The translations under genes and the position numbers were made by a program. Below the pieces are notes generated by a model, which worked only from the letters and a program-made list of their open reading frames with translations, was not told the origin of the DNA and ran no database searches. From a candidate division Hyd24-12 bacterium UBA6080 (GTDB taxonomy: Bacteria > Fermentibacterota > Fermentibacteria > Fermentibacterales > JCC-6), in the NCBI GenBank assembly GCA_002436025.1, contig DIXM01000002.1, forward strand, positions 727,164-791,163: a stretch of DNA of 64,000 nt, in the 5' to 3' direction. Positions 3,626 to 62,947 of this stretch are shown in pieces. Within the stretch, counting starts at the first letter, position 1. Each line of letters opens with the position of its first letter.

Positions 3626-3979
3626 GGGGGCGACAGGTCTCGACGGGTACGGATGCGGTTTTGCGGGAGCATGCCGAGGTTCCGCCGGCCTCGTTAAAAA
3701 GGCGGGAACAAACAACTGCCGCGTAAGCGACAACCCGTCACCCTCCAGTTAGGGTGGCCGTCCTCTCAACCTTCGCCTTCGAGGTTGTACAGGGCGACGC
3801 AATGAAGGCTGGCCTCCATCCCCCCACCTTCCGGGGTGAAGAGGCGAGAACAATGGAGGGCATGTCCGGAGAGCGCCGTCCGTTGCCCACCTCCGGCCAA
3901 GAATGAGTACGGACTAAGCATGTAGCGCCTTCTCAGCCCCCGTGCGCGGACGCGGGTTCGAATCCCGCCGCCTCCACCA
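3626..3979 (+). ncRNA. ssrA: tmRNA (SsrA), ~354 nt
   Basis: 5' GGGGGCGACAGGTCTCGACGGG (tmRNA 5' consensus GGGGnnGAnnnnnTCGACGGG). 3' tRNA-like end GGACGCGGGTTCGAATCCCGCCGCCTCCACCA with T-arm and CCA. Acceptor stem 5' GGGGGCG pairs with 3' CGCCUCC including a G3:U wobble (alanine identity). The tag ORF is probably the frame ending ...ACAACUGCCGCGUAA (..TTAA*), uncertain. Confidence 0.9.
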
Positions 3980-4247
3980 GTCCTCAAGAGGTCTTTCCAG
4001 ACTCCGTAGCCGCGTGTGGTACGAACAACAGCGGATTGTCCGGAACACAGCTCATTCCGGAGTCAGACCGCATGCGACAAGCGGACCACTGAAGCAGATC
4101 TCCTTCGGTTTGCCGGACGTGTTTGCATGAATTGACAAACAGCCATATACTAATGCGCTGTTCCGTGCACGATCGATGATCTTTGCCTTTTCACAAACGT
4201 TTTCGGTTCAAGTGAAATGCACGGGCTAACACTTGGGAGGGATCAGC

Positions 4248-4874
4248 ATGAGGTCGTTGCTTTTTCTGTTTGCTTCGGTGATTACCGTTTCAGCCGCAGA
4301 CATAGTCATCGGCAGCCAGGGCTCGCAGTCAAGCGATCCCTGGTGTGGTTCCTGAAGCTCTCAGATGCACTACCAGGTGGTGGTGCTCGACAGCGAGATG
4401 GGAAATGCCATGGACATTCTGTCCATTGCCTGGCAGAGGGCTGCCAGCGGCAGCAGTGAGGGTCATTATTATGGTGTTGAGATCCACATGGGGCTCTGCG
4501 CCGATGACGAGCTCGGTGCGACATTCGACGACAACTGGATTCCGGGCACCCGCACCCTTGTTTTCGCGGCGGACACACTTGACCTCAGCGGGAACGCCAA
4601 CGATTGGTCAGCTGTCACACTTGACAACCCCTTCTGGTACGGTGGTGAACAAAACCTTCTCATCGACCTTCAGTGGACCTCCGCCAATACGGCGTACAGC
4701 TTCTACACCTGGAGATGGGATACAGGTGCCGTCCGCTGCGTGAAGGCTATCAGCCTCGCCGCCCCTACTGGCGTGCTCTCTACACAGATCTCGGAATTGA
4801 TGTTCTCGGGCGATTTTTCGCTGTCCCAGAGCACATTCGGCGAGATCAAGACCGTTTTCGCCTGTGAAGATTGA
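4248..4874 (+). CDS. Secreted small protein, paralog 1, with in-frame TGA at 4353-4355 in a CGS-TGA (CxxU-like) motif: candidate selenoprotein of an uncharacterised family
   Basis: ATG 4248 with GGGAGG RBS. Signal peptide MRSLLFLFASVITVSAADIV. Same frame continues through TGA into ORF 4365-4874 (MHYQVVVLDSEMG...). The TGA position and context are conserved in two paralogs. A stem-loop lies 12 nt downstream of the TGA. Confidence 0.6.
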
Positions 4875-4884
4875 GGAACCATAC

Positions 4885-5517
4885 ATGAAAACACTTTCCA
4901 CTCTGTTGCTTCTTCTTGCAGCTGTTCCTGCAAGCGCCGCGACGGTTACCGTTGGCAGCGAGGAGCTGTCCTCCGGCGAACCACTTTGCGTATCTTGAAT
5001 CGAGTCGCTGCGCTACCAGGTGGTAGTGCTCGACTCTGAGATGGGCGGCGCGTTTGAATTCGACACCATCAGTCTCAAGAGGCACAGCTCGGGATCGACA
5101 TCCGGTCAGACCACTTTTGCCGACTTCGAGATCTGGGCGGGACTGGCTGAGTCCGATGTTCTCGGTGACAACTTCGAAGACAATTTCATCCCCGGCACCC
5201 GGACACTTCTATTCAGCCGCGAAAGCCTTCTGATTGAGGCCGAACCGAATGCCTGGATACCATTCGTACTCGATTCCCCCTTCTGGTACGGGGGAACAAA
5301 GAACCTCATCATCGAGATCCTCTGGTCCGAAGGTGAGGAACTGGGTACGGAGTGCGTCTACACATGGCAATGGAACACCGGAACCATGCGATGCGCATCC
5401 GGGCCGTACGATTCGGAAACAGGAAGCCGGACCAGCGTGATACCCCTCATTCAGTTCTCAGGGGACATGACCCTTTTGAACACCACTTTCGCCGGAGTCA
5501 AGACTTCCTTCCAGTAG
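4885..5517 (+). CDS. Secreted small protein, paralog 2, with in-frame TGA at 4996-4998 in a CVS-TGA motif: candidate selenoprotein
   Basis: ATG 4885. Signal peptide MKTLSTLLLLLAAVPASA. In-frame TGA, then IESLRYQVVVLDSEMGG... (ORF 5020-5517 in the same frame). Tandem with paralog 1. Equivalent hairpin after the TGA. Confidence 0.6.
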
Positions 5518-6035
5518 CGCTGACACACGGGTGACGTTGAGGCGTTTCGCTTGGGTCGGATCGGAATGGAATGCTCCATTGCTGCGTTTGAATACGGATA
5601 CTACTCTGTGACATGGAGTTAAGCGTTTAGCCTGCTTTTCGATCTGACTTTGCATACCGGGGAAGTTGTTTTGGTTTCTCCTGGCCAGGAAGCTGACATT
5701 CCTTCTGAAACAAGGGTACATTTGATTTGGGGTCCTCCTCGCTGGAGGCGGAGATGAGCAGCAAGTGCTTAAGCCAGGAAGCGAAAACAATGTGAGTGCT
5801 TGGGTTTTACCTTTTATCAATTCTGTCAGAGGCTTTACCAATGCTTGCCTTTCTCTCAAGCAACCAGCTCCCAGGGTAGTCCCGCGCCTGTACTCAGAAA
5901 GTTCACCCCATGAGTTCACCACCACCAGCTCCTTTCAACGCCGGTTTCGATGCGACAGCAGGATGGGGGAAGGAAGCAGACGGTGCCAGTTGGTTTGCCA
6001 ACTGTTTTCCTGCGAATGGATGGAGAGGAAAACCC

Positions 6036-21748: not shown

Positions 21749-21860
21749 GAACCAAACATACGCTTTGCCCGGATGACCGTGTTGATCCCGTATATTCCAG
21801 GCATCGGTCTTCCCACTGGCACTGCCGGCCTTCAAACGGATGGAAAAAGAGGAACCACAC

Positions 21861-22664
21861 ATGAGCCCCGACACTGCAGATACAAAGGCCATTGGCCTTG
21901 GAACCGACTCAGTCGCCCACAGGATACTTGTTCTTTCAGGCAAGGGCGGTGTGGGAAAAAGCACCGTAGCGGTCAACCTGGCGGTTTCCCTCTCGATGCA
22001 GGGCAAAAGCGTTGGCCTTCTTGATGTGGACATTCACGGACCCAGTGTTCCCATGATGCTCGGACTTGGGCTCGAGGGTGTCGAGACGAGGGATGAGGTC
22101 CTCATTCCAGTTGAGTGCGCGGGGCTGAAGGTCATGAGCGTCGGTTTCCTTTTGAGGAACACCGACGACGCCCTCATATGGCGGGGCCCCATGAAGATGA
22201 ACCTCATAAACCAGTTCGTGAAGCAGGTCGAATGGGGGAATCTCGACTACCTTGTCGTTGACTGCCCTCCCGGAACCGGCGACGAGCCGCTGTCCGTCGT
22301 TCAGCTCCTTGAAAGGGTCGACGGAGCCATTATCGTCACCACTCCCCAGAAGGTTGCAGCGGCGGACGTGAGGAAATCGGTCGACTTCTGTCTGAAACTT
22401 GGTGTGCCTGTCTTGGGAGTTGTGGAGAACATGAGCGGTTTCGCCTGCCCCAGGTGCGGCGAGGTCACCCAGATCTTCCGGGGCACGGGTGGCGAGGACA
22501 CGGCCAGGGCATACTCCGTTCCCTTCCTGGGCAGGATTCCCATCGATCCGGCCATAGTGGAATCGGGCGACGACGGCAGACCCTTCGTTTACCATTACGG
22601 CAAATCCGCCACGGCGAAGGCCATGGAAGCAGTGGCCGAGCCGGTCCTTGCCCTGTCGGACTGA
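21861..22664 (+). CDS. apbC: Fe-S cluster carrier ATPase Mrp/ApbC/NBP35
   Basis: ILVLSGKGGVGKSTVAVNLA P-loop and CPRCGEVTQIF cysteine motif. Confidence 0.9.
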   Translation: MSPDTADTKAIGLGTDSVAHRILVLSGKGGVGKSTVAVNLAVSLSMQGKSVGLLDVDIHGPSVPMMLGLGLEGVETRDEVLIPVECAGLKVMSVGFLLRNTDDALIWRGPMKMNLINQFVKQVEWGNLDYLVVDCPPGTGDEPLSVVQLLERVDGAIIVTTPQKVAAADVRKSVDFCLKLGVPVLGVVENMSGFACPRCGEVTQIFRGTGGEDTARAYSVPFLGRIPIDPAIVESGDDGRPFVYHYGKSATAKAMEAVAEPVLALSD

Positions 22665-22675
22665 TTCCAGTCCTG

Positions 22676-23434
22676 ATGGAGTTCGTTCTGGCGTTCGAGC
22701 TTTTTCTGGGCGGGCTGTCAAGCCCGGACGGCCTCGCTCTGGCATCCGACGGCACAGTATTCGTATCCGAGGAGGCTTCAGGCAGTGTCAGGGGGATAAC
22801 GCCCGACGGCACGGTCTTCACGGCCATGATGGATCTCGACAGCCCCGAAGGCATCGCATGGCACCCCGATCTGGGCATCCTGGCTGTCGAGGACGTTCCA
22901 CGGGGCAGGCTCGTGTCCTCCGTCGAAGGTGTGCTTTCGAGGAGGATCCCGAACCCCGAGGGGGTCGCGGTAAGCGTTCAGGGTGATGTGTTCTACACAT
23001 GGGCCAGGATGGGAGGGCCGACGGGCATATGCAGGTGGACCCCCCAGGGTCCCGATTCCGTCGTGACGCTGCCCCGCGGCTTCATGCTCTCCGGGCTCAC
23101 GGTTGGCCCCGACGGCAACCTTTACGCATGCAACGAGACTCCCATCTCCGGGCTTCTTGTGAGCGTGATCGCGGTCTGTCCCCGAACCGGTGTCTGGCTG
23201 CCTTTCGCTGGCGGTATTCCGTCGGCTGAGGGGCTTCGTTTCTCCCTTGAGGACAGAACGCTGATCGTCGTCAGCGAGGAACTCGGATCCCTTTTCGCCA
23301 TATCGCCCGAAGGGGCGACATCGGAGGCGGCCTCCGGTTTCGGTTCGATCGAAGACGTCATCTTCCTGCCCTGCGGTGACATGCTGGTGACGGACGACAG
23401 CGCGGGAAGCATTTTCAGGGTTCCGGCGCCATGA
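22676..23434 (+). CDS. SMP-30/gluconolactonase/NHL-repeat-like beta-propeller protein
   Basis: Repeated motifs (SPDGLALASDGTVFVSE, SPEGIAWHPD, GPDGNLYAC, SAEGLRF) typical of SGL/NHL propellers. Confidence 0.5.
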   Translation: MEFVLAFELFLGGLSSPDGLALASDGTVFVSEEASGSVRGITPDGTVFTAMMDLDSPEGIAWHPDLGILAVEDVPRGRLVSSVEGVLSRRIPNPEGVAVSVQGDVFYTWARMGGPTGICRWTPQGPDSVVTLPRGFMLSGLTVGPDGNLYACNETPISGLLVSVIAVCPRTGVWLPFAGGIPSAEGLRFSLEDRTLIVVSEELGSLFAISPEGATSEAASGFGSIEDVIFLPCGDMLVTDDSAGSIFRVPAP

Positions 23435-24846
23435 CCCATCATTACAAGCCCGGGAGTTACAGGGAGATCCTCGGCGTAGCTTTCCCGGTCATTGCCGGGA
23501 TGGCTGCCCAGACCGTGATGATGTTCTGCGACAGGATGTTCCTGGCCAGACACAGCGTATGGGAGCTTCAGGCCGCCCTTCCCGCGGGGATTCTCGCTTT
23601 CACGCTGATCTGTCTTTTTCAGGGCGCGGCGGGTTACGCCTCAACCTTCGTGAGTCAAAATCACGGGGCGGGCAACTCAAGGGGGGTGGCCGTGTCCTAC
23701 GCCCAGGGGGTGTTCATCGCCCTGTTCTCGGCTCCCCTGCTTCTGGCCCTCTCAATTCCCGGCCGGTTGATCCTCGATCTTGGCGGTCATGATCCCCATG
23801 TACTCGACCTCGAGGTCACATACTTCCGCTGGATGATGGCGGCGGGAGTGGGCGCCACGCTCAACGCCGGGGCGGCTTCCCTCTGGAGCGGCCTTGGAAG
23901 GACCACCTTCACGATGGTAGCGGGAATGGCCGGCGCTGCACTCAACATCCTTCTGGACTGGATCCTCATCTTCGGCAATCTCGGGTTCCCCGAGATGGGA
24001 ATCGAAGGGGCCGGGCTTGCCACTGCGATAAGCTCCTTCGTCCCCGGGATCATCCTCATAACACTATCTTTGAGAGGAAGGGTCTCCCGTGAGTTCCCGA
24101 TACGGGAGAACTTACGACCCAACGGTGCCCAGGTCCGGAAGACCCTGAGGTACGGGCTTCCCGCAGCTGCCAGTGTCTTCATGGATGTGGCAAGTTTCTC
24201 CGTGTTCGTCTTCCTTACCGGAAGGCTTACCCCGGTGGAGTTCACGGCAAGCAACATAGCCTTCGGCGTCAACAACCTGGCCTTTCACCCCCTGCTCGGG
24301 TTCGGCATAACCACCACTATCCTCGTGGGCCGCTACCAGGGAGGAAGGAACCCGGCAATGGCAGGAAGGGTCACGAGACGCACGCTGCTGGTGGCACTGC
24401 TGTACTTCTCTCTCATCGCAGCTACATTCCTCATCCTGCCCGGCATGTACATGACCCTTTTCCGGAGCCCCGAGACGGAAGTGCCCTTCGACCAGCTTTT
24501 GGCAACCGGAACGACTCTTTTGGCCATCCTTTGCCTGTGGGGAGGCTTCGACGCGGTGAGCCTGATGCTCGGGGGGGCGCTGAGGGGGGCGGGCGACACC
24601 AAGTTCGTGATGATCCTCTCATCGTGTCTTGGGTGGCTGTTCTGGATACCGGGCATCTTCCTCCTTTACCAGAGCCCCGGGATGAGTGTTGTCACTCTGT
24701 GGCTTTTCACGACACTTTATGTGGCCCTGCTGGCCCTCGGTTACTTTCTCCGTTACAGGAAGGGCCCCTGGAGGACGATGGTCATGGTGGAACAGGAGCC
24801 CCCGTGTCTCTCCGTACCAGTAACCGAGCCTGCAGGCAGAGGGTGA
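23431..24846 (+). CDS. MATE family efflux transporter
   Basis: 12-TM, 471 aa, typical MATE N-terminus (ILGVAFPVIAGMAAQTVMMFCDRMFLARHS). Confidence 0.75.
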   Translation: MTHHYKPGSYREILGVAFPVIAGMAAQTVMMFCDRMFLARHSVWELQAALPAGILAFTLICLFQGAAGYASTFVSQNHGAGNSRGVAVSYAQGVFIALFSAPLLLALSIPGRLILDLGGHDPHVLDLEVTYFRWMMAAGVGATLNAGAASLWSGLGRTTFTMVAGMAGAALNILLDWILIFGNLGFPEMGIEGAGLATAISSFVPGIILITLSLRGRVSREFPIRENLRPNGAQVRKTLRYGLPAAASVFMDVASFSVFVFLTGRLTPVEFTASNIAFGVNNLAFHPLLGFGITTTILVGRYQGGRNPAMAGRVTRRTLLVALLYFSLIAATFLILPGMYMTLFRSPETEVPFDQLLATGTTLLAILCLWGGFDAVSLMLGGALRGAGDTKFVMILSSCLGWLFWIPGIFLLYQSPGMSVVTLWLFTTLYVALLALGYFLRYRKGPWRTMVMVEQEPPCLSVPVTEPAGRG

Positions 24847-24903
24847 TGGAACGAAGCCGGGCTTTCCGGTGTATCTGATTCAAACCACCCTTCAGGAGGA
24901 GTT

Positions 24904-25446
24904 ATGCACCAGCTTCTATTCATGGCCATGATCGCGGGAACCGTTACAGTAGGGGAGAACGAGTATCCCCTTTCCGAGCCCCTCTGCGGGGGTTGAGGCT
25001 CGTCAACGATACACTGCCAGTTGGTGGTGCCGTCTGAAGAGCTTCCGGGTCCCTTGACCATCACGGGGTTTGCATTCCACAAAGGCCCCACGGGCGCCCG
25101 GAGCGCCACAGTATCGGAAGCGGCAGTGTTCATAGGCATCGCGGGAGGTGATGAACTGGGTCCTGAATTTCAGGCAAACAGGGTATCCCCGACCAGGGTC
25201 ATCAGCAGCGAAAGACTGACTGTCACCGCTGACGAGGACGGAATGGTGACCTTCACCTTCGATACGCCCTGGGAGTATGAGGATGGTGATATCCTCCTTG
25301 AGCTCAGGTTTGAAGGGGTATCAGGCTATCTTTACGTGTTCGGATGGACAGCGCCGGGCCGAAGGTACCTTTCAAGCGGGGATCTCACGGCTGAACGGGG
25401 TACGGTCTCGGAGAACCTGCCGGTCGTGACTCTGATAACGGAGTGA
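24904..25446 (+). CDS. Small protein, paralog 3 of the 4248/4885 family, with in-frame TGA at 24994-24996 in a CGG-TGA motif: candidate selenoprotein
   Basis: AGGAGG RBS then ATG 24904. MHQLLFMAMIAGTVTVGENEYPLSEPLCGG-TGA-GSSTIHCQLVVPSEE..., continuing in frame as ORF 25021-25446. N-terminal TVTVG..EPLC..TGA aligns with paralog 2. Hairpin after the TGA. Confidence 0.55.
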
Positions 25447-35411: not shown

Positions 35412-36017
35412 CTATCGGTACAATGCCTTTATGGCTCCGAACGTGCTTTGCCCGAAAGAACCCGGGATATCGTAATCCACGACCAAGTTAGGGTGTTCTG
35501 AGGCCGCTTCCCGCGAGAAGAAATTCTGGTACAATCCTGAGCCGCCGGTTCCGAAGAAAACAATTCCGTAGTTGGGATAGGTCCCCTGAACCCATTCCTG
35601 AACGAGGCCCTTCACATCGAATTCGTACCATCCGTTTTCAGTAACGACGATCTGGTCGTATGAGCCCGCATCGTCGTAGGCGATGCTGTTCACCAGGACG
35701 CTCTCGCTCCATGGTTCCGTCACGCGGAAGATCTCGCACTCCAATGCGCTCCCGGGGTTGCCGTCGTATCTGAAGATGTTCAGGTATGCGGTGTTGACAA
35801 TGGCTTCCTGGGGTAGTGAAGACAGGTCGAAGCTGATAACGATCCGCTGGTCGAAGGAACTGATGTTGTTGGTCCTGAGCTGCTGACTTGACCCGAACGG
35901 CCCCTGGCCGGGCCAGATCCAGGTGTCTGCGTCGGGAAGCTGGACAATGGTCTCGGCGGAGGCCACAGCAGCGATCAGAACCGTCAACATCAAAGCCAAA
36001 GTGACGCTTCTCATCAT
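35412..36017 (-). CDS. Secreted DNRLRE-domain protein ending in the shared C-terminal motif STFGAIKALYR
   Basis: Signal peptide MMRSVTLALMLTVLIAAVASA. TIVQLPDADTWIW...GWYEFDV...SREAASEHPNLVVDY pattern consistent with the DNRLRE domain. Confidence 0.5.
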   Translation of the reverse strand: MMRSVTLALMLTVLIAAVASAETIVQLPDADTWIWPGQGPFGSSQQLRTNNISSFDQRIVISFDLSSLPQEAIVNTAYLNIFRYDGNPGSALECEIFRVTEPWSESVLVNSIAYDDAGSYDQIVVTENGWYEFDVKGLVQEWVQGTYPNYGIVFFGTGGSGLYQNFFSREAASEHPNLVVDYDIPGSFGQSTFGAIKALYR

Positions 36018-45654: not shown

Positions 45655-47910
45655 ATGAGAAGCATGCTTTTTGCTTTGATATGCACTTTGCCCTGCGTTG
45701 CGGGAGAGGTTCTCTACCGCAATGCGGATGCGCTTCCCGAAGCCTGCATACTGGATTCCGACGGGGGCTCCATGACGATCAGGTTTGACCTGCCTGCAAT
45801 CATCGGGTCAACCGGGGATGTTGGCGTTTTCGGTTCTGGAACGACCCTTCGTGTTCCGGGATGGGGAATTCTCGCGGAGGCTGGCTGCCCCGATCTGCCG
45901 GTGCTCAGGAAGCTGGTCATGGTCCCTAACACATGCGGGGTGAGCCTTCAGGTGATCGAGGAGACCACGACCAGCCTCGGAGTCTTCAGAATTCCCCCTT
46001 TCCAGAAGCCCGGACTGAGATCCGGCGGGACCGTTCCCTACGAACAGGACCTGGCAGTCTACGGATCGGTTGGTCCTTTCCCTTCGGGATGCGCGTTCCT
46101 TGAGGGCGTGCATGTGCTGCGGGACATAAGGGTCGCGACAGTCAGGTTCCAGCCCGTCAGGTACGATCCCCTGTCAGGCGAGGCGACGATAGTGACATCG
46201 GCCACCGTCAGGCTGACATTCGGAGGATCAGGCCAGAACGAGCTGAACCGGTCGTTCCAGGGCACGACCCCGGGTTTCATGCCTTTGTACGGCGGAGTTC
46301 TCGGGTATGAGCCCACCGGTCCGTTCCTCGCCGGCTCCTATCTGTTCATCGGAACCGATGAAAGCCTTGATGCGATCGAGCCGCTGGTCAATTGGAAAAG
46401 ACAGAGGGGCTACCGGGTGTTCCTTGGGACGGTGCCAGAGATCGGGTCAAACGCTGAGATGGTAGATAACTGGATCGAAATGGCCTTCATGAACTGGGAG
46501 TACCCGCCGGAATGGATCCTCATCGCAGGAGGAGAGGACCTGGTGCCCGTACCGCTTCACGATGGGTTCGCATCCGACAACATCTACGGAGTCATTGGAA
46601 CGGAGACAAGCGTGCCCTCCATTCACGTCGGCAGGATTACCGGATCCCTTTTGGACCTCCAGTACCAGGCATGGAAGATCCTGCAGCATGAAGCCGATCC
46701 CTTCGAGCCAGGCGAAGTGAGCTGGTTCCAGAAGGCTGTCACCATCGGGTCAAGTGATGCTCTTGATCCGCTGCACTCCTGGGAGCACACGCAGATGTTC
46801 ATGGAACACGGCATCGCCGTTGACTACTACTGCGATGATCCGATGTACGGCGGAACACCTCCATCAATCGAGGCCATTTCAGCGAACATCAATGAGGGAA
46901 GGACCATAGTCGACTACATCGGGCATGGTTGGGAGCAGGGATGGGGTACATCCGGTTTTTCGATCACTGATGTCGCCGCCCTGTCCAATGGCCGAATGCT
47001 TCCGTGGGTGTTCTCGATAGCCTGCAGCAACGCAACCTTCATGAATGGTTACTGTTTCGGCGAGGCCTGGATGACCGAGGGTGAGATGACCGAACCGCAG
47101 GGCGGCCTTGGCTTCATGGGTGCCACCACCGGGAGCCCTTTCGGCCCCACGGATTCTCTTGCAGAATACACCTGGCGCGGCTACTTCGAACTCGAAATCC
47201 ACCACATGGGCGCGGCGGTCGACTACGGCAAGCTGAAGGTCGAGGAGTTCTACGGAGTCGAGAACTATGGCAACAACTGGATGCACATGGTGTTCGGATG
47301 TCCCGAGGTCGACATATACTCCGATACTTCCCCGATCGCACTGCTGGATGCGAGCCACAGCCCCAATATCTGGAGCGGTTCCTGGCCGGTGAACGTCAGC
47401 ACGGTTGGCGGGGACCCGGTTGAGGCCGCTCTGGTCGGGGTGGTCCAGGGCGATGAGCTGCTCGGAGCAGGATACTCTGACAGCAACGGCTTCCTGCAAC
47501 TCGACATCCCCGAGCTGCCATACGGCGGCTCCATGGAGGCGATCCTCACGGTTACGGCTCACAACCTCAGGCCTTACACGGCAAACCTCGACCCCGCACC
47601 CGAGGGGTTTGAAGAGGGGGAGGGAACGGCACTCTTCCTCGCCCCGGTGCTTCCCAACCCGTTTTCGGCCATAACGTCCATCTCCTTCGGTCTGCCCGGG
47701 GCCTCTCAGTGCAACCTTTCCATCTTCGACATCTCCGGGAGACTGGTGCGTACGCTGTTCGAGGGGAGCCTCCCGGGAGGAAGTCAAAGCATTGTCTGGG
47801 ATGGACGTACCGGATCGGGAAGTTCCTGCCCGGACGGCATCTACTTCATCCGGCTGCATACTCCGAACGCGACTCTTGTGGAGAGGGCTGTGCGGCTGGG
47901 CTCAAACTAG
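45655..47910 (+). CDS. Gingipain-like cysteine peptidase (C25 family) with C-terminal T9SS/FlgD-Ig-like sorting domain
   Basis: Signal peptide MRSMLFALICTLPCVAG. YIGHGWEQGW and FSIACSNATF catalytic His/Cys context. C-terminus NPFSAITSISFGLPGASQCNLSIFDISGRLVRTLFEG...GIYFIRL matches the T9SS CTD pattern. Confidence 0.7.
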   Translation: MRSMLFALICTLPCVAGEVLYRNADALPEACILDSDGGSMTIRFDLPAIIGSTGDVGVFGSGTTLRVPGWGILAEAGCPDLPVLRKLVMVPNTCGVSLQVIEETTTSLGVFRIPPFQKPGLRSGGTVPYEQDLAVYGSVGPFPSGCAFLEGVHVLRDIRVATVRFQPVRYDPLSGEATIVTSATVRLTFGGSGQNELNRSFQGTTPGFMPLYGGVLGYEPTGPFLAGSYLFIGTDESLDAIEPLVNWKRQRGYRVFLGTVPEIGSNAEMVDNWIEMAFMNWEYPPEWILIAGGEDLVPVPLHDGFASDNIYGVIGTETSVPSIHVGRITGSLLDLQYQAWKILQHEADPFEPGEVSWFQKAVTIGSSDALDPLHSWEHTQMFMEHGIAVDYYCDDPMYGGTPPSIEAISANINEGRTIVDYIGHGWEQGWGTSGFSITDVAALSNGRMLPWVFSIACSNATFMNGYCFGEAWMTEGEMTEPQGGLGFMGATTGSPFGPTDSLAEYTWRGYFELEIHHMGAAVDYGKLKVEEFYGVENYGNNWMHMVFGCPEVDIYSDTSPIALLDASHSPNIWSGSWPVNVSTVGGDPVEAALVGVVQGDELLGAGYSDSNGFLQLDIPELPYGGSMEAILTVTAHNLRPYTANLDPAPEGFEEGEGTALFLAPVLPNPFSAITSISFGLPGASQCNLSIFDISGRLVRTLFEGSLPGGSQSIVWDGRTGSGSSCPDGIYFIRLHTPNATLVERAVRLGSN

Positions 47911-61267: not shown

Positions 61268-62947
61268 ATGAGAGCGTTGCCGTGGTTGTTCCTTCTTCCA
61301 TCACTTCTGCTCGGTCAGTGGAGCCCTGATTCCACCCAGAATCTCACGATCTGTGACCTTTCGGGTGAGCAGGTCCTTCCCAAGATAGTTCCCACTTCCG
61401 ACGGCGGGTGCTTCATCTCCTGGTTCGATACCAGGTCGGGGAGCTACTGCGTCTACCTTCAGCGGTTGGATTACCAGGGCGTTCCCCAGTTGGGGGATGA
61501 CGGTATCCTGGTGAGCGACCAGCCCCAGATGAGCTGGATCGTTGACTACTCGATGGCGGTCGACGGGTCGGACAACGCGGTTCTCGCCTTTTCGGACGAG
61601 AGGAACGGCTCGGATGAGCTGGACGTTTCGGTCTACAAGGTCAGCAGTACGGGTGAGTTCCTGTGGGGGGAGGACGGGATCTGCCTTTCGAATCCTTCCG
61701 TACCGGGGTTTGAGCCTAACCCGGTCGTCGCCGTGACGGATCAGGGCAACTGCGTGTTTGCCTGGGGAAAGTCCGAAGACACCGACTACCTGGTTTTTCA
61801 GAAGCTCTCACCCTCGGGTGAAAAGCTGTGGGGGGACTACGGTCTTGTTTTGTCGAGCGCTTCGGCAGACCTGTCCTCGCCTGCCATTGTCCCTTCGGGC
61901 CAGGACAGCGTTATCGTGCTGTGGAAAAGCTCGACCGGTTCTTACCCCATGACAGTGACCCACCTCTACGCGGACATGCTGGATGTGAACGGTGAGGGCA
62001 CATGGAGCGACTCGCCGGTTCTGGTCTACAACACCGGCACGATCACTCCGTGGACATTCCCCGGGATCATCGGGGACGGTTCCGACGGGGCCGTGTGCTT
62101 CTGGTACGATTCCCCCACCATGAATTCCTTCGACGTGTGGGTGCAGCACCTCGACAGCCAGGGCATCAACCTGTTCCCCTTCAACGGCGCCCAGGCCTCG
62201 ACTTTCTCTGCGGACAGGCTTCACATGAGCCCTTCGGCCGTCATCAACTCCGCAGGCGTGTGCTTTGCCTTCTGGGTGGAGAGCAACGCCAACCAGAACA
62301 TGTACGGTGTCTACGGCCAGAAGTTTTCTTCAACAGGGGACCGTCTGTGGACGGACAGCGGCCTTGATCTCCTCCCGCTTGGGTCCGAGCAGACGGCATT
62401 CGTGGATGCCCTGGCTGCGGGCGACGGCATCTTCGTATCCTACTTCATCAACGCGTCGAACACATCGTTCAAGGTCCTGAAGCTTGACTTCGACGGGACC
62501 GTCCTCTGGGGGCCCGTCTCCCTGTCCGCAGGAAGCCTTGGTGGCAAGGACGACCCCGTGGTCTGCCCGGGATACGATGACGGCGCGTACTACACCTGGA
62601 CCGACAACAGGGGTGACGGCGGCGTGTACGCCCAGAACATCCAGTCCGACGGAACAATGGGGCAGTACCTGGGCGTTGAGCCAGGTTCGGTCGCGGAGTA
62701 CCTGCGTGTAACCCCGAACCCCTCCCGGGGAGCGGTGAGCTTCGTACTTGGCGGATCTGCGGGAGAGACGGCCATCGTGCGGATCTACGACCTGTCCGGG
62801 CGGCTCGTAGACAGCCTTGGTACGGTCCTGGGGGCTGAGGGCGCCTCACTCTCGTGGAACAGGGCCGGTTCGGTCCCCCCCGGCGTTTACCTCGTGAGGA
62901 TGGAGAACGGTTCCAGGGTTCTTCTGTCACGGATGATCCTGCTCTAG
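61268..62947 (+). CDS. Secreted repeat protein with C-terminal T9SS/FlgD-Ig-like sorting domain
   Basis: Signal peptide MRALPWLFLLPSLLLG. CTD ...VTPNPSRGAVSFVLGGSAGETAIVRIYDLSGRLVDSL...GVYLVRMENGSRVLLSRMILL. Confidence 0.6.
   Translation: MRALPWLFLLPSLLLGQWSPDSTQNLTICDLSGEQVLPKIVPTSDGGCFISWFDTRSGSYCVYLQRLDYQGVPQLGDDGILVSDQPQMSWIVDYSMAVDGSDNAVLAFSDERNGSDELDVSVYKVSSTGEFLWGEDGICLSNPSVPGFEPNPVVAVTDQGNCVFAWGKSEDTDYLVFQKLSPSGEKLWGDYGLVLSSASADLSSPAIVPSGQDSVIVLWKSSTGSYPMTVTHLYADMLDVNGEGTWSDSPVLVYNTGTITPWTFPGIIGDGSDGAVCFWYDSPTMNSFDVWVQHLDSQGINLFPFNGAQASTFSADRLHMSPSAVINSAGVCFAFWVESNANQNMYGVYGQKFSSTGDRLWTDSGLDLLPLGSEQTAFVDALAAGDGIFVSYFINASNTSFKVLKLDFDGTVLWGPVSLSAGSLGGKDDPVVCPGYDDGAYYTWTDNRGDGGVYAQNIQSDGTMGQYLGVEPGSVAEYLRVTPNPSRGAVSFVLGGSAGETAIVRIYDLSGRLVDSLGTVLGAEGASLSWNRAGSVPPGVYLVRMENGSRVLLSRMILL

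Follow-up and report, generated by a model that had tools for sequence, protein, structure and literature searches.

Probable bacterial selenocysteine insertion sequences in genes for small exported C-x-x-U proteins of Fermentibacterota

The contig DIXM01000002.1 of the candidate division Hyd24-12 bacterium UBA6080 (phylum Fermentibacterota; assembly GCA_002436025.1) carries, between positions 727,164 and 791,163, three genes interrupted by an in-frame TGA codon, each of which is followed by an RNA hairpin. We refer to this 64 kb stretch (58% GC, with 2249 TGA trinucleotides in total) as the window and number positions from its first letter. An earlier note on the same DNA had proposed the three hairpins as candidate bacterial selenocysteine insertion sequence (SECIS) elements. 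On checking the reading frames and folds, all three TGA codons (4353, 4996 and 24994) were recovered, each with a hairpin of the sequence described there.

The three genes share a common plan, comprising a Shine-Dalgarno sequence, an ATG, a hydrophobic signal-peptide-like start, a short x-I-x-I-G segment and the motif P-x-C-x-x-[TGA] (Table 1). The frame stays open past the TGA for 149-172 further codons. Five to six codons beyond it lies [HR]-Y-Q-V-V-V (H-C-Q-L-V-V in gene 3), followed by ~165 residues. Gene 1, with the Shine-Dalgarno sequence GGGAGG 7 nt 5′ of its ATG, encodes a signal-peptide-like N-terminus, the motif DPWCGS-U-SSQMHYQVVV (U marking the UGA) and a predicted beta-sandwich domain; gene callers annotate only 4365-4874 (P0001, 169 aa). 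Gene 2 has the Shine-Dalgarno sequence GAGGAA 5′ of its ATG and the motif EPLCVS-U-IESLRYQVVV. Its product aligns with that of gene 1 at 42% identity, and its database entry, P0003, begins only at VLDSEM. Gene 3 is preceded by AGGAGG, carries the motif EPLCGG-U-GSSTIHCQLVV and shares 26% identity with gene 1.

Table 1. Coordinates in the window of the three read-through genes, their in-frame UGA codons and the hairpins that follow them.
Feature	Position	Strand	Description
Gene 1, in tandem with gene 2	4248..4874	+	208-aa read-through open reading frame; ATG 4248; TGA stop 4872-4874
Gene 1 in-frame UGA, proposed selenocysteine codon, motif C-G-S-U	4353..4355	+	Basis: translation, homologue column
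Gene 1 candidate SECIS core	4367..4386	+	Stem 4367-4374/4379-4386, 8 bp, one G-U; loop AGGU 4375-4378
Gene 2, tandem paralogue of gene 1	4885..5517	+	210-aa read-through open reading frame; ATG 4885
Gene 2 in-frame UGA, proposed selenocysteine codon, motif C-V-S-U	4996..4998	+	Basis: translation
Gene 2 candidate SECIS	5002..5036	+	Upper stem 5010-5017/5022-5029; loop AGGU 5018-5021; 6-bp lower stem 5002-5007/5031-5036
Gene 3, distant paralogue	24904..25446	+	180-aa read-through open reading frame; ATG 24904; ends in TGA stop
Gene 3 in-frame UGA, proposed selenocysteine codon, motif C-G-G-U	24994..24996	+	Basis: translation
Gene 3 candidate SECIS core	25012..25029	+	CACUGCC-AGUU-GGUGGUG; 7-bp stem 25012-25018/25023-25029; loop AGUU 25019-25022

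Using a profile of the three read-through proteins, we identified 64 database proteins corresponding to the selenocysteine (Sec) forms. A genome scan with one genome per species yielded 34 loci, exact-protein look-ups added loci of the gene 3 type, and a metagenome scan for gene-3 types contributed 2 loci only. All 34 scan loci belong to Fermentibacterota (Ca. Fermentibacteria, Fermentibacter daniensis, Aegiribacteria and Hyd24-12). The in-frame TGA occupies the same column in ~50 genes, mostly as P-[WFL]-C-x-x-U after a signal peptide, and recurs in dozens of independent assemblies (NCBI, ENA, JGI, Logan). The motif occurs as CGSU, CVSU, CCSU, CASU, CGGU, CGDU, CADU, CSTU, CGNU, CGIU and CATU, with few departures (FGC-U, CG-U and GIG-U). 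The TGA of gene 3 is shared by the gene-3-type loci L035 and L037-L044 and by a more distant homologue, L036. As annotated, each of the 64 database proteins begins past the TGA, with M[HR]YQVVV, VLDSE, LVVPSE and similar starts. Over the 20 codons before the TGA, orthologues differ mainly at third positions and largely synonymously (9 synonymous and 0 non-synonymous changes between gene 2 and L002), which indicates purifying selection upstream of the UGA and translation of these codons in the frame leading into the TGA.

Cysteine replaces the TGA in loci L030 and L031 and in a clade of 27 database clusters (P0065-P0091). P-F-C-x-x-C is invariant in the 19 Cys-form clusters that were aligned, and these proteins (~206 aa) are predicted at full length by gene callers because nothing interrupts the frame; P0140 has S-N-G-C at the motif. 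The family thus presents the Sec/Cys pair by which selenoproteins are recognised, CxxU opposite CxxC, with conserved flanks on both sides.

Some members vary at or beyond the motif. The second tandem copy in two metagenome-assembled genomes (MAGs; L012:6764 and L013:6758) reads ..SGCAPIGIG-U.., with a Cys six residues before Sec, and L029 and L034 have no Cys 5′ of Sec (PFGS-U and PFSS-U-C). In L026 (JAKLEF010000313.1), a second in-frame TGA at 394-396 falls exactly on the conserved Cys of ..Y-M-G-L-C.., which is a Cys in 21 of ~52 members. Homology resumes past this codon (..GEDFLGTEFDQNYIPGTRTLVF..), no convincing SECIS follows it, and the 3′ end of the contig appears to carry a frameshift; a double-Sec variant and an assembly error are both possible readings.

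The hairpin of gene 1 has the sequence GCACUACC-AGGU-GGUGGUGC, with weaker additional pairs out to 4357-4394. That of gene 2 (5010-5029) is GCGCUACC-AGGU-GGUAGUGC, with a stem of 8 bp, and in gene 3 the core is part of an extended interrupted helix over 24997-25043. When the 50 nt from the UGA onwards are folded, the minimum-energy structure contains the hairpin in all three genes (z = -1.9, -4.0 and -2.3 for genes 1, 2 and 3); the energies of these folds range from -18.9 to -23.5 kcal/mol, the lowest being that of gene 2. The bare hairpins have energies of -12.2, -12.1 and -7.8 kcal/mol, respectively. The earlier note had placed every stem 12 nt downstream of its TGA: a hairpin does follow each, and its stem begins 11 nt past the UGA in the tandem pair and 15 nt past that of gene 3. 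Genes 1 and 2 have a 5-codon spacer and a UGA-to-loop gap of 19 nt; the corresponding values for gene 3 are 6 codons and 22 nt. Gene 3 has one codon more and one base pair fewer than the other two (7 rather than 8), and the identical geometry claimed for it is approximate only. The two stem differences between genes 1 and 2, A>G in pair 3:6′ (A-U to G-U) and G>A in pair 5:4′ (U-G to U-A), had been called compensatory; they are in fact two separate one-sided changes, each neutral for pairing and consistent with the structure. The helix clearly extends towards the UGA in gene 2 (where the lower stem gains stability over shuffled flanks, z = -2.4), in its orthologues and in some others. A universal lower stem was rejected, as it was significant in 13 of 44 sequences only, and the conserved element is the 7-8 bp stem with an A-G-G/U-N loop. 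We also rejected the hairpins as intrinsic terminators: none was detected in 3900-6000 and no T-run lies 3′ of the hairpins.

Conservation of the stem was examined in an alignment (A4) of 44 sites, gap-free and anchored on the Y-Q codons, with the remainder of the same family genes as the background for codon use. Folding recovers the hairpin as the structure of lowest energy in nearly all TGA forms, its seven inner pairs are formed in 42-44 of the 44 sequences, and RNAalifold returns it as the sole consensus structure. Compensatory changes, which the pair of genes in the earlier note had not provided, are present among the homologues. At pair 21:28, C-G is replaced by U-A in 7 sequences, where Tyr TAT coincides with ATR and Val has become Ile or Met. 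At pair 16:33, C-G becomes G-C in L018, where Asp GAC faces Val GTC. Orthologues of gene 3 show GUG to GCG (G-U to G-C) and other changes that keep the pairs. The homologues that retain the TGA also keep the hairpin, both the 44 in A4 and the gene-3-type loci, so that the finding named beforehand as decisive against the proposal, a TGA kept with no structure, did not appear.

The synonymous sites are the strongest evidence for the selection that acts on the stem as RNA. Arginine in the stem is encoded by CGC in 29 of 29 cases, compared with a frequency of 0.157 elsewhere in the same genes. For valine the background is GTC 0.42, GTG 0.28, GTT 0.18 and GTA 0.12. At Val-2, which pairs with the U of the Tyr codon, GTA occurs 26 times, GTG 11 times and GTC or GTT never, against a background of 0.60 for these last two; Val-3 is GTG in 33 of 36 (background 0.28). 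At Val-1 the amino acid differs among sequences (V, A, G, L or E), and the codon ends in G in 43 of 44. Five Cys-form genes for which the DNA was read have no hairpin: they keep M-R-Y-Q, continue with T-L-Y, and use mixed Arg codons (AGA, AGG, CGC and CGG). The caveat in the earlier note, that the stem also encodes a conserved peptide, is justified in that R-Y-Q is under real protein constraint. The choice of codons and the amino-acid changes that keep pairs show that the stem is, over and above that constraint, maintained for itself.

A covariance model trained on the 44 A4 sites matched exactly three places in the window, in gene 1 (67 bits), gene 2 (69.9 bits) and gene 3 (31.4 bits, E = 7e-5). 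It detected the gene-3-type loci, which lay outside the training set (E 5e-6 to 0.02), and was silent at the Cys forms. The element is nearly identical in sequence across paralogues that share only 26-42% protein identity, unlike canonical bacterial SECIS elements.

The bacterial SECIS (bSECIS) model, as given in a review of prokaryotic selenoproteomes from 2026 (PMC13188914), allows 3-9 nt in the loop and 4-16 bp in the upper stem, calls for a G at one of the first two loop positions, mostly with G or U next, and sets a distance of 16-37 nt from UGA to loop and a free energy of at most -7.5 kcal/mol. The three hairpins fall within all of these bounds (loop 4 nt; stems 8, 8 and 7 bp; gaps 19, 19 and 22 nt; energies as above), and the fit of spacing and loop bases proposed in the earlier note holds throughout. 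Of the 44 A4 sites, 42 have an A-G-G-N loop; A-G-U-U is found at the remaining two and in the gene-3 types, and the G at column 24 is invariant. In genes 1-3 the stem-loop lies inside the open reading frame (ORF), directly 3′ of an in-frame UGA, and the structure is conserved with covariation where the UGA is kept and absent from the five Cys-form genes. With gathering and permissive thresholds, Rfam yielded nothing beyond transfer-messenger RNA (tmRNA) and noise (E > 5). Canonical bacterial SECIS elements (E. coli fdhF and fdnG; the Zhang and Gladyshev model as shown in PMC13188914 Fig. 2) likewise lie in the coding region right after the Sec UGA. In contrast to them, the loop here is a strict A-G-G/U-N tetraloop closed by C-G, and only about one member in three has a lower stem reaching in the direction of the UGA. 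The E. coli fdhF element has a bulged U, and none is evident in the Fermentibacterota hairpins. The fdhA SECIS of Moorella thermoacetica is said to be likewise a short, perfect, GC-rich hairpin with a small GGU-containing loop; in crystal structures with the winged-helix domains of SelB, the protein reportedly reads this GGU-type loop through a flipped-out G and U.

At the protein level, the closest parallels are the C-x-x-U selenoproteins of the 2026 inventory (SelW-like, GrdA, HdrA, the CC/Se-motif family, AhpD-related proteins and others; PMC13188914 Table 1), which in the entries shown there likewise pair C-x-x-U with C-x-x-C homologues and include small proteins of unassigned function. 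The inventory families shown all carry a Pfam or NCBIfam identifier. Compared with these entries, the family described here has no Pfam or NCBIfam model, is predicted to be a beta-sandwich rather than thioredoxin-like, has a signal peptide and is present in at least three paralogues per genome.

Taken together, these observations make it very probable that the three hairpins are bacterial SECIS elements in genes for small exported proteins. They are of the canonical type, and no new mechanism is involved. The mechanism we envisage is that of the established E. coli and Moorella SelB-SECIS systems. With the ribosome at the UGA, the hairpin would sit just outside the mRNA channel, where its AGG(U) loop and 7-8 bp stem would be bound by the C-terminal winged-helix domains of SelB. 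SelB would then deliver Sec-tRNA(Sec), and Sec would be inserted in place of termination. The predicted product has a cleavable signal peptide, a short C-x-x-U arm and a beta-sandwich of ~165 aa, the first strand of which (YQVVV) would be encoded by the hairpin itself.

The exported C-x-x-U selenoproteins apparently form an undescribed family that is restricted to the phylum and mis-annotated throughout. As far as Pfam, NCBIfam and the inventory passages go, the family appears to be uncatalogued in curated collections. On balance, we lean towards regarding this as the first evidence that Fermentibacterota (Hyd24-12/Aegiribacteria) decode UGA as Sec, and do so for a phylum-restricted, paralogue-expanded (3 to 5+ genes per genome) family of exported beta-sandwich C-x-x-U proteins. 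In this reading the family is absent from Pfam, NCBIfam and the 2026 inventory, its Sec forms are at least as numerous as its Cys forms, and one near-invariant SECIS is built into the first beta-strand.

Several observations weigh against this interpretation. An uninterrupted hairpin of the bSECIS type follows 5.6% of the 2249 TGAs in the window, and the bSECIS constraints alone are therefore unspecific (0.9% precede a hairpin as stable as those of genes 1 and 2). A single hairpin site is accordingly weak evidence, and the case rests on the comparison of homologues: the occurrence of an almost identical hairpin at all three paralogous sites and its retention in ~50 homologues are not products of chance. 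The gene 3 hairpin passes the energy threshold only narrowly. Across A4 the lower stem has a mean z of -0.97 and falls below -1.64 in just the 13 sequences mentioned above. The homologues are, moreover, largely related to one another, and their counts do not equal independent events. The main limit concerns the Sec machinery. Searches for it covered the window, 10 kb past each of its ends (~84 kb of this genome) and the other loci, amounting to less than ~4% of any one genome. Within these limits, tblastn with E. coli SelA, SelB and SelD over 481 kb of Fermentibacterota DNA found none of them, tRNA-Sec was not found by ARAGORN (window and 40 loci) or Rfam, and Pfam searches of ~50 large ORFs of the window revealed no Sec machinery. 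Because SelA, SelB, SelD and tRNA-Sec were not found, we infer SelB binding and actual Sec insertion from cis evidence only. Their absence from ~84 kb of one genome proves little, and the Sec trait of the phylum is unconfirmed. In the searchable literature, we found no paper linking Fermentibacter*, Hyd24-12 or Aegiribacteria with selenium use, and Fermentibacterota is not mentioned in the BSepDB paper.

It is improbable that the UGA is recoded to something other than Sec, the hairpin stimulating read-through by a Trp, Cys or Arg tRNA or another factor. In other systems, RNA structures 3′ of a stop codon are able to stimulate read-through, and the lack of Sec machinery in the sequence examined counts in favour of this explanation. 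It does not account well for a position that alternates with Cys in C-x-x-C/U, as is typical of the selenoproteins in PMC13188914 Table 1, nor for a loop sequence and spacing that match the SelB-type model in the same source. Strict conservation of the loop G would also be unexpected for generic read-through stimulators.

We regard it as very improbable that the TGA is a real stop that ends a ~35-aa peptide, with the hairpin acting in regulation or coupling and the domain translated from a downstream start. This is exactly what gene callers predict, and gene 1 does have an ATG four codons past the TGA. However, no start codon past the TGA is conserved among homologues: in gene 2 the first is a GTG that lies within the strand, the starts in gene-3 types vary, and the internal starts lack Shine-Dalgarno sequences. 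Termination would also cut off the signal peptide from the domain that it should export. The frame is unbroken in ~50 genes, and the Cys forms are one continuous ORF with Cys at the same column. In the AlphaFold2 model of a full-length Cys form, moreover, the arm is folded onto the sandwich with good predicted confidence (predicted local distance difference test, pLDDT, 93-96 for residues 21-40).

That the hairpin only reflects the coding of [HR]-Y-Q-V-V-V and does nothing as RNA is highly improbable. The stem does overlap the first beta-strand, R-Y-Q is conserved as protein even in Cys forms and distant multi-domain relatives, and CAG, the Gln codon in the stem, is the common one anyway (93%). 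Yet at synonymous sites the base that pairs is fixed despite a strong codon bias (CGC for Arg, no GTC or GTT at Val-2, third-position G at Val-1), amino acids change in sets that keep a pair (TAT with ATR, GAC with GTC), and the Cys forms retain RYQ and neither the hairpin nor the codon choice. Finally, although some uncultured lineages reassign UGA, it is scarcely conceivable that UGA is a sense codon genome-wide, or that the TGAs are assembly errors or pseudogene lesions: 25 of 52 family genes, genes 1 and 3 among them, truly end at TGA, which is therefore not reassigned, the other large ORFs of the window are intact under code 11 with clean Pfam domains, and the same in-frame TGA recurs in the independent assemblies.

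To characterise the protein, we scanned the three read-through products against Pfam-A and NCBIfam 20.0, which gave no match at E <= 1 beyond noise, and modelled the post-TGA domain of gene 1 and, separately, a full-length Cys form (AlphaFold2). The gene 1 domain was predicted as a beta-sandwich (pLDDT 92.4), as was the all-beta Cys form (pLDDT 90.3), and the stem-encoded peptide YQVVV corresponds to the first beta-strand. A thioredoxin-fold oxidoreductase of the C-x-x-U/U-x-x-C type was rejected, as the models are all-beta and most closely resemble CBM, PHR and phage-spike domains. Among known structures, CBM/PHR/galactose-binding-like beta-sandwiches (acetylxylan esterase CBM, 7tog/7tok; MYCBP2 PHR, 3gbw) come nearest, and from these the domain differs by an identity of 6-11% and a Foldseek E > 0.005, so that no ligand site can be transferred. 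From the motif one might guess a role for C-x-x-U in redox chemistry or in metal or metalloid binding.

An exhaustive hidden Markov model search returned 3334 proteins at E <= 0.001. In many large proteins the domain is repeated 3-14 times alongside CBM96, PKD and Ig-like domains, and the N-terminal segment in these repeat proteins is P-F-x(5-7)-R-x-Q, with no cysteines. The C-x-x-U/C arm is thus special to the single-domain, signal-peptide-bearing proteins of Fermentibacterota. Proteins with repeats of the beta-sandwich domain (P0092-P0238) range from 550 to 6500 aa and include lipoprotein-like proteins of ~560 aa with three repeats. Lacking a Pfam model, the domain is an unannotated, widespread family in its own right.

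If the SECIS assignment holds, a systematic annotation error is corrected: the 64 database entries homologous to the Sec forms all lack their N-terminus, and with it the signal peptide and likely active-site motif. The selenoprotein family would have an uncommon architecture, an exported non-thioredoxin beta-sandwich with its motif on an N-terminal arm. It would also imply that a phylum frequent in anaerobic digesters and sulfidic sediments depends on selenium, a point of possible relevance to how digesters are dosed with trace elements. The element would be a natural case of one sequence doubling as RNA structure and beta-strand, with the matched Cys paralogues showing how the stem sequence behaves when freed from the RNA constraint.

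A search for further bSECIS-like sites that have a Cys close to the TGA returned family members, spurious off-frame or terminator matches and one candidate, TGA 11184 of L007. The ORF (L007:10683-11612, + strand, from a Fermentibacterales MAG) encodes a signal peptide and an NHL/propeller-like protein, in which the TGA follows a Cys (..IDLC-U-GQG..) and an 8-bp hairpin with a GGC loop lies 17 nt 3′. No homologue of this ORF was found locally or in the protein database. It is a possible second selenoprotein, and equally possibly an error or pseudogene.

Gene 3 lies in a conserved neighbourhood (window 21840-25446; also L037-L044) that comprises an Mrp/NUBPL-type ParA ATPase, an NHL-repeat protein, a MatE transporter and gene 3 itself. 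Genes for a corrinoid adenosyltransferase (CobA/BtuR) and for a 4Fe-4S protein frequently occur nearby. A tmRNA (ssrA) gene at 3626-3979 (+), ~270 nt 5′ of gene 1, was identified by Rfam (RF00023, 147.7 bits) and went unreported by ARAGORN. In many single-copy loci (L014-L021, L024 and L011), a tRNA-Asp(GTC) gene lies ~200-300 nt upstream of the family gene on the opposite strand, a neighbourhood that several MAGs conserve. Elsewhere in the window are genes for a small CBM96/disaggregatase-repeat protein (35412-36017, -), a gingipain-like C25 peptidase with a FlgD-Ig tail (45655-47910, +) and a protein with the Por_Secre_tail of the type IX secretion system (61268-62947, +), and this set suggests that the organism has many secreted and surface proteins.

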